A DNA stretch of 64,000 nt, from the NCBI GenBank assembly GCA_964640665.1, contig CAZXHT010000021.1, positions 5,821-69,820 on the forward strand. Direction: 5' to 3'. The notes below the pieces were generated by a model. It saw nothing but the letters and a program-made list of their open reading frames with translations. It was not told the origin of the DNA and searched no databases. Shown here in pieces: positions 53,498-62,025 of the stretch; the stretch's first letter is position 1, and every line of letters begins with the position of its first letter. The DNA is from an uncultured Myxococcales bacterium (GTDB taxonomy: Bacteria; Myxococcota; B64-G9). The position numbers and the translations under genes were made by a program.

Positions 53498-53752
53498 ATG
53501 TTGAGCAAACTGAGAGGACGCAAAGGTCAGGGTATGACCGAGTACATCATCATCGTGGCGTTGATCGCCATCGCGGCCATCGGCGTCGTCGGTCTGTTCG
53601 GCGACAACATCCGCGCCCTGTTCTCCACCTCGGCCAACGCGCTGGCCGGTAACGAGAAAACCGGCACGGACACCAACCAGGCCGGCAAGAAGATGTACAA
53701 GCACAAGACCCTCAAGAAGTTCGGCATGGACAACGAACCGACCGGTTCATAA
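53498..53752 (+). CDS. flp: Flp (type IVc/Tad) pilin
   Basis: RKGQG|MTEYIIIVALIAIAAIGVV Flp motif; AAAGGAG RBS. Confidence 0.92.
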   Translation: MLSKLRGRKGQGMTEYIIIVALIAIAAIGVVGLFGDNIRALFSTSANALAGNEKTGTDTNQAGKKMYKHKTLKKFGMDNEPTGS

Positions 53753-53766
53753 GAGTTCCCCCAAGG

Positions 53767-53803
53767 TACCCGGAAGGCATCCCCAATGGATGCCTTCCGG
53801 GTA
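53767..53803 (+). terminator. 16-bp perfect stem-loop after flp
   Basis: TACCCGGAAGGCATCC-CCAAT-GGATGCCTTCCGGGTA followed by TGCTTTCT. Confidence 0.7.
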
Positions 53804-53838
53804 TGCTTTCTGAGCAGGTCCGTCAATCAGAAAAAATC

Positions 53839-54090
53839 ATGATTGGAAAGAGGTTGTGTAGTGCTTTGCTCCCCGGGCCTGGCGCGCTCTTGGCGCTGGG
53901 GGTGGCTTTATCTGACGCGCTGGCAAAGCTCGGCAGCTTCGATCTTTTCTTCAACATTTCCTCGGGCCGTTGGATCATCTCCCATGGCTTTCCCGGAAGC
54001 GATCCGTTCATCGTCACCAGCCTCCGGGTCCTGGTTCCCGCATGAATGGGCCTACGGAGTTCACATGGGGGTTGTGCGAGAGTTTCCCAG
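53839..54090 (+). pseudogene. Frameshifted N-terminal relic of a GT-C-like multi-pass membrane protein
   Basis: DLFFNISSGRWIISHGFPGSDPF, then after a +1 shift at about 54010, SSPASGSWFPHEWAY; fits the D.wwH...Gr.i....p..DPFS....g.W..HEW pattern; truncated before cpaA. Confidence 0.5.
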
Positions 54091-58203: not shown

Positions 58204-58245
58204 TTACACCTTGTTCTGCGATATTGCTCCTGGAGGCGTGGACAG

Positions 58246-60039
58246 ATGCTCAGCCTGATGATTTCCGAGAAGGGCAGCTCATCAAAGCAGCGTGACTTTC
58301 AAAAAGGGGAGATAACCATCGGTCGCGTTCAGGGTAACGACATCATCCTGCCTCGCGGCAACGTGTCCAAGAAACATGCCCGCATCGTTGAACGTGACGG
58401 TAAGGTGGTCGTTCTCGACCTGAAGAGCACCAACGGAACACTGGTCAACGGAAAGCGAATCGGCGCTCCACAGGTGGTTCACTCCAGGGACGAGATCCAG
58501 ATCGGTGAATTCGTCATCAAGTTGTCGGAGAAAGACGAAGTCGCGCGAGAGAAACCCACATCCAAGGCGAAGCGCAAGCCCACCAGCCGCAGCGTGCGCA
58601 AACGTCTGGACCGGGTTCCCGAAGATGACTCTGACGCAGAGGAGCCGGAGTTGCTCGATGAGTTCGACGAGGTGTCTTCTACCTCGATCGACTCCGAAGC
58701 GATGGAACCCGAACCGGTGCCCGAACCGCCGAAGATAAAAAAACGCAAGCTCGATCCGAAATTGGCGAAATACTCGGAGTTGCAGCGGGACGTTCACTCA
58801 CGCTTGATTGAGTACCTCGACCTGCGGCGCCTGGATCTCGAGCAGCTTGGCGACGAGGAACTCTGGGATCAAACCGAGCGGGCCATCCGCAACATCATCA
58901 CCCAGATGGAATCCGATGGAGAACTTGAAAGCTGGGTGGACATCGAGGTCCTGGTCAAGGATGTCATCAACGAGGCGCTCGGGCTCGGGCCGCTGGAAGA
59001 CTTTCTGGCCGACCCGACCGTCAACGAGATCATGGTCAACCACGCCAACCAGATCTACATCGAGCGCAACGGCAAGCTCGTTTTGACCGACAAGATCTTT
59101 TCTTCAAATCAGGCGGTTCTCGGCGTCATCGAACGTATCGTCGCCCCCATAGGCAGGCGCATCGATGAGAGTTCGCCCATGGTCGACGCCCGCTTGAAGG
59201 ACGGTTCGCGAGTCAACGCCATCATTCCACCACTGGCGCTCAAGGGCCCCAGCGTCACTATCCGCAAGTTCAAGAAAGAGGCCATGTCGGTCAACCAGCT
59301 GGTCCGCTTCGGAACGTTCACGCCCGGGATGTCCGAGTTCATGGAGATGTGCATCAAGGCGCGCAAGAATGCAATCGTCTCCGGCGGTACCGGCTCGGGC
59401 AAGACGACGACCCTCAACTGTCTTTCCGCCTTCATTCCGGAGAGTGAGCGAATCGTCACCGTCGAGGACGCTGCCGAGTTGCAGGTTCACCAGGAACACT
59501 GGGTGTCGCTCGAGTCGCGTCCGCCGAACATCGAAGGCAAGGGCCAGATAAGCATTCGCGACCTGGTGCGCAACTGCCTGCGTATGCGCCCCGACCGCAT
59601 CATCGTCGGCGAGTGCCGCGGCGGCGAGGCCCTCGACATGCTGCAGGCCATGAACACCGGTCACGACGGCTCGCTGACTACCGTACACGCGAACTCGCCG
59701 CGCGACGCGTTGTCGCGTCTCGAGACCATGGTGCTCATGGCTGGAATGGACCTGCCGGTCAGGGCCATCCGCGAGCAGGTGTCATCCGCCGTCGACATAA
59801 TCATCCAGCAAACGAGATTTTCAGACGGCTCGCGCAAGGTTACCTACATCTCGGAGGTGACCGGCATGGAGACCGACATTATAACCCTCCAGGATATCTT
59901 CTATTTCAAGCAAGAGGGATTCGACAAGGACAACAAGGTAAAGGGTCGTTACGTGGCGACCGGCTTTATACCCAAGTTCTACGATGAACTGCAAAAACGC
60001 GGAATTCCGGTAAACATGGACATCTTCCGCGAGCAGTAA
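58246..60039 (+). CDS. cpaF: Tad ATPase (CpaF/TadA) fused to an N-terminal FHA domain
   Basis: FHA GR...SKKH...STNGT; GLGPLE, EIMVN, Walker [33 protein letters not shown]. Confidence 0.93.
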
Positions 60040-60075
60040 TACGTCCAAGCAAACGGACCATCAGGTGGTTGTGTC

Positions 60076-62025
60076 ATGGCCAAGATAGTTCTATCCGACC
60101 CCAGCGGTCGCGAAAAGGTGTACGAGCTGACGTCCGAGCCGCAAGTGTGGGGCAGAGGTGAGGACTCGGACGTCATCCTCGGTTCCCGCAGTGTCATCAG
60201 GCATCACATGCGTATCTGGGAAGACGGCGACAAGGTGATGGTGGAGGATCTCTCCGGGGGCAAGGGGATCCTGCTGGACGGTGAGCCGGTTTCAGGCACC
60301 TTCGAGCTGGAGCCCGGCCTGGAGATGGAAGCCGGTGTTTTCGTTTTCAGGATTCACGGGGTCAAGCTGACCACCGCAGTTGACGCTGAAGTGCCGGGAG
60401 AAGAAAAACTAGTGCCCGTCCTGGTCGGCACCAGGGGTGTGACCAAGGGGGTCGAGATCGAGCTTCAGGAGGGCGACAATGATGTCGGGAGAGATCCCTC
60501 CCTGTATGTCGTCATCGATGAGCAATCGATATCGCGCCTGCATGCCAGATTGACTATCAGCCAGGACGGGACGGGTGGAGCCCGCCTGGTGGACATGCAC
60601 AGCTCCAATGGCACTTTCGCAAACAAGAAGAAGATCGACGAGATCGAGTTGCAGTCCGGGGACATTATTCGTTTCGGCAGCGTGGAGTTCAAGTTTCTCT
60701 ATGGAAAGGAGACATCCGCCGCCGCGGCTGCCTTAAAGAAGAGAAAGTTGCTGCTGATCGGCGTAGGCGGCCTCGTCGGCCTTTTTGTGATCATCGGTGT
60801 TTGCGCCAAGCTAAGAGGCGGGCACGGGGAACAGGCCGGGCCGACAGGGCCGGTGGAGGAGGGAGTCCCGCTGGAAATTCGTGTCGATCAGCACCTCGGA
60901 GCGGCGCGTGGCGCCATGGAGCGCTTCGATTGGAAAACGGCCAAGAAGGAAGTCGAGATCGCCAAGGATCTCCTGCCGATATCGAGCGAGGTCAGGAAAC
61001 TAGAAAAGCTCATCGACAAAGAAATGACAAGCAAAGGGCTTTATAAGGAAGGCGTGGACCGCTACGATCTGAGCAAGTGGAACGAGGCACTGGATCTGTT
61101 CAAGAAGATTCCACATGAGAGTGCTTACTACGCCAAGGTCAAGTACAAAATGTCGGAGATTGTCGAGAAGCAGTCCAAATATCACTTGGGAGAAGGCAAG
61201 GGCTATTACCGGGGTCAGCAGTACCGAAAAGCCCAAAGGCACTTTATCGCTTACATGGGTTTGAAGCCTTGTGACAAGAAGGTGTACGAGAAGTGGCTCA
61301 AGAAAACCGAGGGGCGGATGCGCCACTTCGAGATCAGGTACAAGCCCTTCATTTATCATTGCACGGATGCTGCGCAAGAGAAGAAGTCCTCACTCGAGGC
61401 AGGCCTGGATCCTATGGACTTGTTGAAGGCCAAGTATCAGGATAAGAGCATTTTCGAGGCCATCGAACTGTACTTCAAGGGCAAGGCGGAACTGTCGATA
61501 AACAAGCTGCGCAAGATCAAGGTCATGTCAAACGATAATAAGATCGTCGAGCAGGCCAAGTTGATCGAGCGGGTGATGATGGTAGTCAGCGGAAAATTCA
61601 GCGAGGGGACGGGATTGTTGCTGCAGGGTGAGTTGAAAAAGGCCAGGGATAAGTTCCAGACCGTCCTGGTAAACGATAAAAAGATCATGCCACCGGGCGT
61701 GAGAAGCTTCTATTGTGACAACGTGGGAAGCCAACTGGCGAGCAGGTTGTACAAGCAGGGCCTGGAAAAGTACAACCGCAAGGAGTGGGTCAAGAGCTTC
61801 AAATTCTGGAAGGAGTGCCTGGATGTCAGCCCCGACGATCGCAACTGCATGCAGGGGCTGATCAACCTCGAGTCGGTTGCGGGGGAAGCACTCGACTATG
61901 CCCGCCAGCTTGAAATCCGCAAGGACGAGGATGCATTTGACGTCTGGAAGCAGGTCATGCAGATGACCCGTCCGGAATCCCTGCCGTACAAGAAAGCAAA
62001 CCTGAAACTGCGGGAATACGAATAG
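60076..62025 (+). CDS. FHA-FHA-TM-TPR protein (KilD-like)
   Basis: Degenerate FHA1 (GR..SVIRHH..GKG), canonical FHA2 (GR..SRLH..SNG), TM, helical TPR-like C-terminus. Confidence 0.85.
   Translation: MAKIVLSDPSGREKVYELTSEPQVWGRGEDSDVILGSRSVIRHHMRIWEDGDKVMVEDLSGGKGILLDGEPVSGTFELEPGLEMEAGVFVFRIHGVKLTTAVDAEVPGEEKLVPVLVGTRGVTKGVEIELQEGDNDVGRDPSLYVVIDEQSISRLHARLTISQDGTGGARLVDMHSSNGTFANKKKIDEIELQSGDIIRFGSVEFKFLYGKETSAAAAALKKRKLLLIGVGGLVGLFVIIGVCAKLRGGHGEQAGPTGPVEEGVPLEIRVDQHLGAARGAMERFDWKTAKKEVEIAKDLLPISSEVRKLEKLIDKEMTSKGLYKEGVDRYDLSKWNEALDLFKKIPHESAYYAKVKYKMSEIVEKQSKYHLGEGKGYYRGQQYRKAQRHFIAYMGLKPCDKKVYEKWLKKTEGRMRHFEIRYKPFIYHCTDAAQEKKSSLEAGLDPMDLLKAKYQDKSIFEAIELYFKGKAELSINKLRKIKVMSNDNKIVEQAKLIERVMMVVSGKFSEGTGLLLQGELKKARDKFQTVLVNDKKIMPPGVRSFYCDNVGSQLASRLYKQGLEKYNRKEWVKSFKFWKECLDVSPDDRNCMQGLINLESVAGEALDYARQLEIRKDEDAFDVWKQVMQMTRPESLPYKKANLKLREYE

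Follow-up and report, generated by a model that had tools for sequence, protein, structure and literature searches.

A 64,000-nucleotide stretch of contig CAZXHT010000021.1 from an uncultured Myxococcales bacterium (assembly GCA_964640665.1; this whole stretch is hereafter called the window) carries at 53498-62025 of its + strand a gene cluster which, judged by the sequences of its products, codes for five components of a Tad-type (type IVc) pilus machine: a Flp pilin, a prepilin peptidase, a secretin lacking the N0 domain, a motor ATPase fused to an FHA domain, and a KilD-type protein. The region is very likely the orthologue of Kil cluster 1 (kilA-kilC-kilF-kilD) of the predator Myxococcus xanthus, and the overall picture of this orthologue as one half of a pilus machine that likely serves contact-dependent attack appears probable. 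The host belongs to an uncultured lineage of Myxococcota that is known solely from metagenome-assembled genomes (MAGs), and the locus is a Kil member from this sister lineage with modest variations rather than a new kind of system.

In M. xanthus, Kil cluster 1 comprises MXAN_3102-3108, among which KilA (MXAN_3105) is the peptidase, KilC (MXAN_3106) a secretin with BON and pil_N domains, KilF (MXAN_3107) an ATPase with an FHA domain, and KilD (MXAN_3108) a protein with FHA and TPR domains; cluster 2 comprises KilH, KilG, and KilB (Seef et al. 2021, PMC8460266). The major pilin, KilP (mxan_5121), is encoded alone elsewhere, and KilK and KilO are adapter pilins (Herrou et al. 2025, PMC12075869).

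Correspondence with Kil Cluster 1

A preliminary description, made from the nucleotide sequence, had read the order peptidase, secretin, FHA-fused ATPase, and FHA/membrane helix/TPR protein in this region and had likened it to kilA, kilC, kilF, and kilD. The open reading frames (ORFs) were recovered at exactly the positions it had listed, ORFs and Pfam domains bear out the order, and the proposed match agrees with the published table (MXAN_3105-3108), with which sequence, order, and phylogeny concur. Each of the four window proteins and its M. xanthus counterpart are mutual best matches among the sequences compared. The same four genes were matched when seven M. xanthus proteins were searched in reverse against the window, with GspD and GspE far behind; in this search MXAN_3102 and MXAN_3103 had no window counterpart, and MXAN_3104 matched at the FHA level only. 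The M. xanthus DK1622 locus (L020, MXAN_3102-3108) was reached through the protein search and a contig look-up. Order and strand of the four genes there match those in the window, the product sizes are near-equal (window/M. xanthus: KilA 173/179, KilC 485/482, KilF 597/595, and KilD 649/743 residues), and the identities are 35-64%, or 26% for KilD.

The Motor ATPase and Its Phylogeny

The ATPase is 64% identical over its full length to KilF of M. xanthus DK1622 (P0127). It contains an FHA domain at residues 23-87 and a T2SSE domain at 245-522 (Pfam), and its core matches solved CpaF structures with an E-value of 1e-127. Among the best 120 of 7998 homologues, to which P0127 belongs, all are fused to FHA except P0077, which has no FHA, and all those with a named source are from Myxococcota. 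Throughout these 120 homologues, the FHA residues G26-R27, S41-x-x-H44, and N63-G64-T65 are invariant, as are the Walker A, Asp box, Walker B, and His box motifs of the motor.

For phylogenetic analysis, the window ATPase and its relatives were added by MAFFT to the published KilF partition (33 taxa × 240 columns), and a neighbor-joining tree was built with 500 bootstraps. In the tree columns, the window ATPase is 73-75% identical to Myxococcales KilF and 46-58% identical to all other Tad ATPases in the set, including those of Bdellovibrio, Bradymonadales, and Caulobacter. The window lineage, Myxococcales KilF, and an FHA-less ATPase from a distant locus (L005) formed a clade in 499 of 500 bootstraps (357 of 500 without the L005 ATPase), within which the window lineage is a distinct sister clade to Myxococcales KilF (386 of 500) and is not nested in Myxococcaceae. 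Alphaproteobacterial Tad ATPases are distant in the tree and form their own clade in all 500 bootstraps.

The Secretin and the Prepilin Peptidase

The secretin aligns with KilC end to end (residues 35-485; 54% identity, E 1e-175) and has the same domains, i.e., T2SS-T3SS_pil_N, BON, and Secretin; neither N0 nor Secretin_N was found by Pfam, whereas the GspD protein encoded elsewhere in the window does have N0. It scores 490 bits against KilC, versus 160 and 116 bits for the best solved relatives, which are Tad secretins (8jvb and RcpA 8odn, respectively). Grouping of the ATPase and secretin with ordinary adhesion Tad systems, which the preliminary description had named as the outcome that would count against a Kil assignment, was seen for neither protein, given the clade with Myxococcales KilF on the one hand and these secretin scores (490 versus 116-160 bits) on the other. 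The peptidase matches Pfam Peptidase_A24 (E 2.8e-13) and is 35% identical to KilA (E 6e-18), and both catalytic Asp contexts (VTDV and GxGDVKLM) align.

The KilD-Type Protein

The product of the last gene aligns collinearly with KilD (BLASTP, 26% identity over 522 residues, E 6e-32); the alignment runs through the second of its two FHA domains (FHA2), the membrane helix, and the helical domain at the C-terminus, whereas the first (FHA1) gives a separate match to KilD with 31% identity. Thirty-four further homologues are full-length or nearly so (35-85% identity), the named ones being labelled as Myxococcota, Myxococcales, or Deltaproteobacteria MAGs. One member of the family (P0034), which is 35% identical and has the same FHA-FHA-membrane helix-helical layout, adjoins not Tad genes but a type III secretion-type export cluster (L006, 10001-20039) with SctR/S/T, FliO, SctQ, SctN, SctL, and a 249-residue SctJ-like protein. 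This arrangement recalls, as a hint, the functional connection that has been reported between Kil and T3SS*, a type III secretion system that has no needle.

Within FHA2, all 23 sequences compared, M. xanthus KilD among them, have G138-R139, S153-R154-x-H156, and S176-x-N178-G179. FHA1 of the window protein keeps G26-R27 and is degenerate, with I41 and K63 in place of Ser and Asn. At the Ser position of FHA1, S, T, I, V, A, and E occur across the lineage, and the Asn has given way to other residues in all 20 sequences of the window's own lineage (at least 36% identity), while FHA1 of M. xanthus is canonical. The loops predicted to bind phosphothreonine (pThr), with their Gly-Arg, Ser-x-x-His, and Asn-Gly residues, are thus complete in the ATPase FHA (invariant in the 120 homologues described above) and in FHA2 of KilD and incomplete in FHA1, just as had been described from the first inspection. 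An AlphaFold2 model of KilD (mean predicted local distance difference test score, pLDDT, 84) consists of FHA sandwiches at 1-95 and 113-208, a long helix at 215-245, and an all-alpha TPR-like domain at 266-648 with pLDDT above 90. In a Foldseek search with the model, its FHA domains superpose on pThr-binding FHA structures (GarA, OdhI, FhaA, and Bdellovibrio DgcB), and the C-terminal domain matched generic TPR proteins with no specific analogue.

We infer that KilD is an N-in bitopic inner-membrane protein with a periplasmic TPR-like domain, because all family members, M. xanthus KilD (L020, 11796-14027) included, retain a hydrophobic helix preceded by K/R-rich residues, and the conserved cysteines lie only C-terminal of this helix (C399/C429, also present in M. 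xanthus, and C581/C591). M. xanthus KilD has been called cytoplasmic in both previous reports (PMC8460266, PMC12075869).

The Pilin Gene and the Slot Behind It

The flp gene starts at an ATG preceded by the Shine-Dalgarno sequence AAGGAG and encodes a prepilin of 84 residues with the leader MLSKLRGRKG; cleavage is predicted before QGMTEY, i.e., between RKG and QGMTEY, in agreement with the G/XXXXE(Y) motif. Its Flp_Fap score (27.3 bits) is under the curated Pfam cutoff of 32.2. A protein search found 4688 homologues, the closest of which share contigs with KilD-like genes; the best 120 of the 4688 that were listed are all MAG sequences, and KilP is not among these listed matches. According to published primers, KilP is an 85-residue product (M13-Y97) with MKAISKKQ at its start and FGQNNAY at its end. 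In a search of 50%-identity representatives, the window Flp was found to be 57% identical to a Flp from a Myxococcaceae MAG (P0299) that ends in NFGQNNTY, and its own C-terminal end is KKFGMDNEPTGS. Based on length, motif, and C-terminal resemblance via this intermediate, it is plausible that the window pilin is KilP-like.

Directly 3′ of flp lies a perfect 17-bp hairpin with a fold energy of -39.6 kcal/mol (z = -6.4). A GC-rich hairpin of different sequence occurs at the same place in five relatives, and in four of the five it is followed by a run of at least five U (UUUUCUU in L004). Because a terminator hairpin follows it, flp is probably transcribed largely as its own unit, and the hairpin would fit strong expression of the pilin gene with transcription uncoupled from that of the machinery genes. 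A scan for sigma-70 promoters gave scores no better than those in shuffled sequence, and no matches were obtained over the window in Rfam and tRNA scans.

Behind the hairpin, a small ORF (53803-54045) has first ~50 residues that are 74% identical (E 9e-23) to the start of a 490-residue membrane-protein gene, which has no family assignment and is intact between flp and the peptidase gene in a relative (L003, 4518-5990). Nucleotide homology between the window and L004 behind flp ends at 54062, and the G+C content at third codon positions (GC3) of the remnant is 0.65, compared with 0.74-0.85 in neighbouring genes. This slot between pilin and peptidase is a gene-turnover hotspot: one 85%-identical relative has the 490-residue gene intact, and a 97%-identical one lacks it wholly.

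Conservation of the Cluster in Relatives

The features of the cluster are listed in Table 1. For none of the five cluster proteins did any NCBIfam model reach its curated cutoff.

Table 1. Features of the Kil-type cluster (positions in the window).
Feature	Position	Strand	Basis or remark
Flp-type prepilin	53498..53752	+	84 aa; Pfam Flp_Fap; probable major pilin, KilP-like
Hairpin, probable intrinsic terminator or attenuator	53766..53804	+	Perfect 17-bp stem directly 3′ of flp
Remnant of 490-aa membrane-protein gene	53803..54108	+	Gene intact at same position in relative L003/L004
Prepilin peptidase, probable KilA orthologue (TadV/CpaA type, without methyltransferase domain)	54109..54630	+	Pfam Peptidase_A24
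Strain-specific ~2.0-kb insertion, two co-directional genes	54631..56665	+	Absent from relatives' loci
Prenyltransferase/squalene-cyclase-repeat protein (weak match)	54682-55584	+	Pfam/NCBIfam
DUF362 protein with twin-arginine (Tat) signal	~55575-56609	+	Pfam/NCBIfam
Outer-membrane secretin, probable KilC orthologue, short, no N0/Secretin_N	56746..58203	+	Pfam T2SS-T3SS_pil_N + BON + Secretin
FHA-fused CpaF/TadA-family motor ATPase, probable KilF orthologue	58246..60039	+	Pfam FHA + T2SSE
Probable KilD orthologue: FHA1, FHA2, membrane helix, TPR-like domain	60076..62025	+	Pfam two FHA + TPR; match to MXAN_3108

Six related loci (L001, L004, L007, L008, L010, and L011) were obtained from contig look-ups and a genome-collection scan, in which the N-terminal 375 residues of the ATPase served as query; the scan found five close relatives and missed M. 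xanthus, where the peptide patterns differ. The order Flp-peptidase-secretin-FHA-ATPase-KilD is present in all six, with protein identities of 44-97%, and the flanks are common too wherever the contig extends that far, i.e., in five of the six on one or both sides (upstream, AMIN protein, LptD, and TetR; downstream, MlaC and OEP). The KilD gene lies directly downstream of the ATPase gene in eight loci besides the window, namely those of M. xanthus, the six relatives, and L005. The latter (4666-20420) is a distant module with a secretin, a CpaF-type ATPase without FHA, and a 734-residue KilD-like protein (25% identical); within 10 kb of it are genes for an FHA-sigma54 activator, a small FHA protein, a PP2C phosphatase, and a Ser/Thr kinase, which are candidate writers and erasers of a phospho-mark.

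The preliminary description had correctly stated that flp heads the cluster and that extra genes interrupt it. Compared with L007, which is 87-96% identical at the nucleotide level on both sides, the larger interruption is a clean insertion of 2035 bp, after which the native region upstream of the secretin gene resumes at 56666. The secretin gene lies within ~100 bp of the peptidase gene, with no insertion, in L007, L004, and L001. Neither the prenyltransferase-like nor the DUF362 gene is found in any of the six relatives' loci, and both were therefore rejected as parts of the machine. No flanking repeats or mobile-element signature were found around the insertion. The two inserted genes are passengers, and the interruptions, as far as the compared sequences tell, represent recent strain-level gene flux, because the inserted genes are absent in relatives, the insertion is clean versus L007, and the gene behind the remnant is intact in L003/L004.

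Comparison with Other Systems

The likeness to the Kil system of M. xanthus extends to architecture, i.e., an FHA domain fused to the ATPase, an N0-less secretin, a KilD with two FHA domains, a helix, and a TPR-like domain, and a platform and cpaB located outside the cluster. In the rows of the published genome table for Myxococcaceae, KilA-KilC-KilF-KilD are consecutive and KilH-KilG-KilB are consecutive at a second locus; in those for Vulgatibacter and Anaeromyxobacter, the former has KilC and KilF adjacent with KilB-G-H apart, and the latter an ordinary contiguous Tad locus without KilD or KilP (PMC12075869). Several differences from M. xanthus were also observed. Unlike the solitary kilP, the pilin gene of the window heads the cluster and has its own predicted terminator; equivalents of MXAN_3102-3104 (two beta-propeller-type proteins and an FHA protein) are missing; the window KilD is 94 residues shorter and its FHA1 has lost the pThr-binding Ser and Asn; and the window strain has the 2-kb insertion between kilA and kilC.

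Kil-like loci have already been described across Myxococcales, Bradymonadales, and Bdellovibrionales. The loci of Bdellovibrio bacteriovorus (Bd0110-0119) and Bradymonas sediminis (DN745_00680-00700) resemble the window in that a Tad ATPase, secretin, and peptidase occur in predatory "delta-proteobacteria" with FHA and TPR proteins nearby. Unlike the window, they keep cpaB, secretin, ATPase, and tadB/tadC contiguous or nearly so; no KilD homologue was detected in them by BLAST, and their ATPase cores are 48-52% identical to that of the window versus 73-75% for Myxococcales KilF. Canonical Tad/Cpa systems (Caulobacter cpaA-F and Aggregatibacter flp-tad) likewise have a Flp with G/XXXXEY, an A24 peptidase without methylase, an RcpA/CpaC-type secretin, and a single CpaF/TadA motor, whereas the window locus lacks tadZ/cpaE, tadB/tadC, rcpC/cpaB, tadD, and tadE/F/G and has the ATPase FHA and the KilD partner. 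The window ATPase core shares 46% identity with Caulobacter CpaF, from which it is distant in the tree. Finally, the SctD/YscD scaffolds of type III and the TagH/Fha scaffolds of type VI secretion systems have cytoplasmic FHA, one helix, and a periplasmic domain, a layout that is predicted for KilD as well. Pfam Yop-YscD_cpl matches both FHA domains of KilD, and the TagH and SctD models match weakly. This is a functional analogy only: the presumed periplasmic part of KilD is a TPR-like solenoid instead of the ring-building domains of SctD, and there is no sequence relationship beyond FHA.

Proposed Mechanism and Function

Judged from their protein families, the peptidase would mature the Flp prepilin, and the FHA-ATPase, acting on a KilG/KilH platform encoded elsewhere, would polymerise the pilin through the N0-less secretin. 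As in M. xanthus, the machine would be completed from other loci by KilG/KilH (TadB/TadC), KilB (CpaB), and minor Tip pilins. KilD may act as a bitopic inner-membrane scaffold whose FHA2 binds a Thr-phosphorylated partner and helps to position or activate the ATPase, while the ATPase FHA may read a similar Thr-phosphorylation mark set by a kinase encoded elsewhere; phospho-reading by both FHA domains could then set the place and time at which the ATPase assembles and polymerises the pilus. That assembly occurs at prey contact and leads to killing is suggested by the M. xanthus analogy only, and we consider a predatory use of the cluster about as likely as not.

A pilus cannot be built by a Tad ATPase and secretin without platform proteins. 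Since these proteins are indispensable and the split layout is conserved, a second locus is implied. The absence of tadB, tadC, and cpaB from this region, which had been pointed out at the outset, was borne out for the ~50 ORFs of the window by Pfam. No tadZ/cpaE, tadB, tadC, or rcpC/cpaB domains, which together with the ATPase and secretin characterise a canonical Tad locus, lie beside the cluster. The only T2SSF protein of the window, GspF (14339-15556), was considered as the missing TadB/TadC and rejected, as it sits 38 kb away inside a complete gspC-M operon. M. xanthus cluster 1 likewise has no annotated genes for platform proteins, CpaB, TadZ, kinase, or phosphatase within 10 kb, and L005 has no annotated platform or KilB genes within the same distance.

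Several observations weigh against the Kil assignment or against its extension to prey killing. The KilF tree was built by a distance method from one protein, the KilD similarity outside the FHA domains is low (26%), and the pilin was assigned by length, motif, and a C-terminus compared via an intermediate, not by the KilP sequence itself. The Pfam scans of the window ORFs detected no TadB/TadC, RcpC/CpaB, TadZ-like ATPase, minor pilins, Ser/Thr kinase, or PP2C phosphatase, and platform genes, CpaB, TadZ, kinase, and phosphatase are not annotated within 10 kb of the cluster in L001-L004 either. Completeness of the machine and its phospho-control are presumptive here, as no platform or kinase genes lie in the 64-kb window. 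The organism is uncultured, the predation reading comes from M. xanthus orthology alone, and some relatives have bin names that, in our own reading, suggest a sediment or cold-seep origin. The secreted hydrolases of the window, which had been taken as consistent with predation, are indeed present, but the M23 peptidase, S8 subtilase, and metallophosphoesterase-PKD protein are all generic and add little to the case, because M23 and S8 peptidases and type II secretion systems (T2SSs) are common in non-predators.

It is possible, if rather doubtful, that the genes are Kil orthologues whose pilus serves adhesion, surface sensing, or biofilm formation as an ordinary Tad pilus does, in an organism that is no predator. 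Predation has been demonstrated only in M. xanthus, where separate loci encode the Tip pilins and the KilK/KilO adapters. The Tip minor pilins have been linked to prey recognition and are reported to be almost exclusive to Myxococcales, and neither these (KilL/M/N) nor KilK/KilO were found in the window. The degenerate FHA1, canonical in M. xanthus, the missing MXAN_3102-3104 equivalents, and the possible sediment and cold-seep sources of some relatives point in the same direction. However, the FHA-ATPase, N0-less secretin, KilD partner, and split layout are all kept across the lineage, and the ordinary Tad locus of Anaeromyxobacter without KilD or KilP indicates that Kil-type and ordinary Tad systems are distinguishable within Myxococcota.

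That the last gene encodes a generic FHA-TPR signalling protein which lies beside the ATPase gene by chance and is not the KilD orthologue is very improbable. Its identity to KilD is just 26%, FHA and TPR are common modules, and the 35%-identical P0034 is found beside a type III secretion-like cluster, but the alignment with KilD runs collinearly through FHA1, FHA2, the helix, and ~400 C-terminal residues and includes a common Cys pair, and the same position 3′ of the ATPase gene is occupied in M. xanthus, in all six relatives, and even in the distant L005, whose ATPase has no FHA. Least probable is a decaying or orphaned, non-functional half-system, for although TadB/TadC and CpaB are missing from the window, 2 kb have been inserted between peptidase and secretin, and a gene remnant lies beside flp, the five genes remain whole and in order across six related loci, even at 44% identity, their catalytic and pThr-binding residues are invariant, they have a GC3 typical for the genome, the insertion runs in the same direction as the cluster without touching the native sequence upstream of the secretin gene, and the functional M. 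xanthus system is equally split.

If the cluster is indeed the orthologue of Kil cluster 1, it is of interest because Kil is the only Tad-type pilus shown to kill prey. The divergent sister lineage shows which features are constrained (the ATPase FHA, FHA2 and the membrane helix of KilD, and one Cys pair) and which are dispensable (the pThr pocket of FHA1 and MXAN_3102-3104), and these are concrete targets for mutagenesis in M. xanthus. The pilin gene is physically linked to the machine in the window lineage, and the FHA-ATPase together with KilD provides a marker set for Kil-type loci in metagenomes. More tentatively, and with a rather low expectation that it will hold, we suggest that the KilD family as a whole, including M. 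xanthus KilD, might be bitopic, that its disulfide-stabilised periplasmic TPR-like domain could sense prey contact or the state of the secretin and signal to the tandem FHA domains recruiting the FHA-ATPase, that the family could link the Kil pilus to the needle-less T3SS*, and that the lineage might extend Kil-type killing to uncultured Myxococcota, perhaps in sediments.

Other Features of the Window

On the - strand, a complete gspC-M T2SS operon (6790-21059) contains the sole T2SSF, T2SSE, and N0-secretin genes outside the cluster. Its order is gspC, gspD (941 residues, with N0), gspE, gspF, lspA, gspG, three or four pseudopilin genes, gspK, a PilM/GspL-PilN fusion, and gspM, the signal peptidase II gene lspA being embedded between gspF and gspG. 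Candidate secreted proteins encoded near this operon include the M23 peptidase (1784-2653), the metallophosphoesterase-PKD protein (2650-5055), a bacterial serpin (5342-6619, - strand, E 1e-110), and the S8 subtilase (31487-33565, - strand). An 811-residue protein with at least six EGF-like repeats (34277-36712, + strand; Pfam EGF, E 1e-38) has an architecture that is unusual for bacteria. A cyclic-nucleotide trio at 39870-45145 (+ strand) consists of a CHASE2-adenylate/guanylate cyclase, a double cNMP-binding protein, and a GAF-HD phosphohydrolase. In addition, a low-GC patch is present at ~30000-32000 (0.516 versus about 0.60), in which an ORF at 30834-31379 has a GC3 of 0.32 and no Pfam match, and which may be foreign or non-coding.

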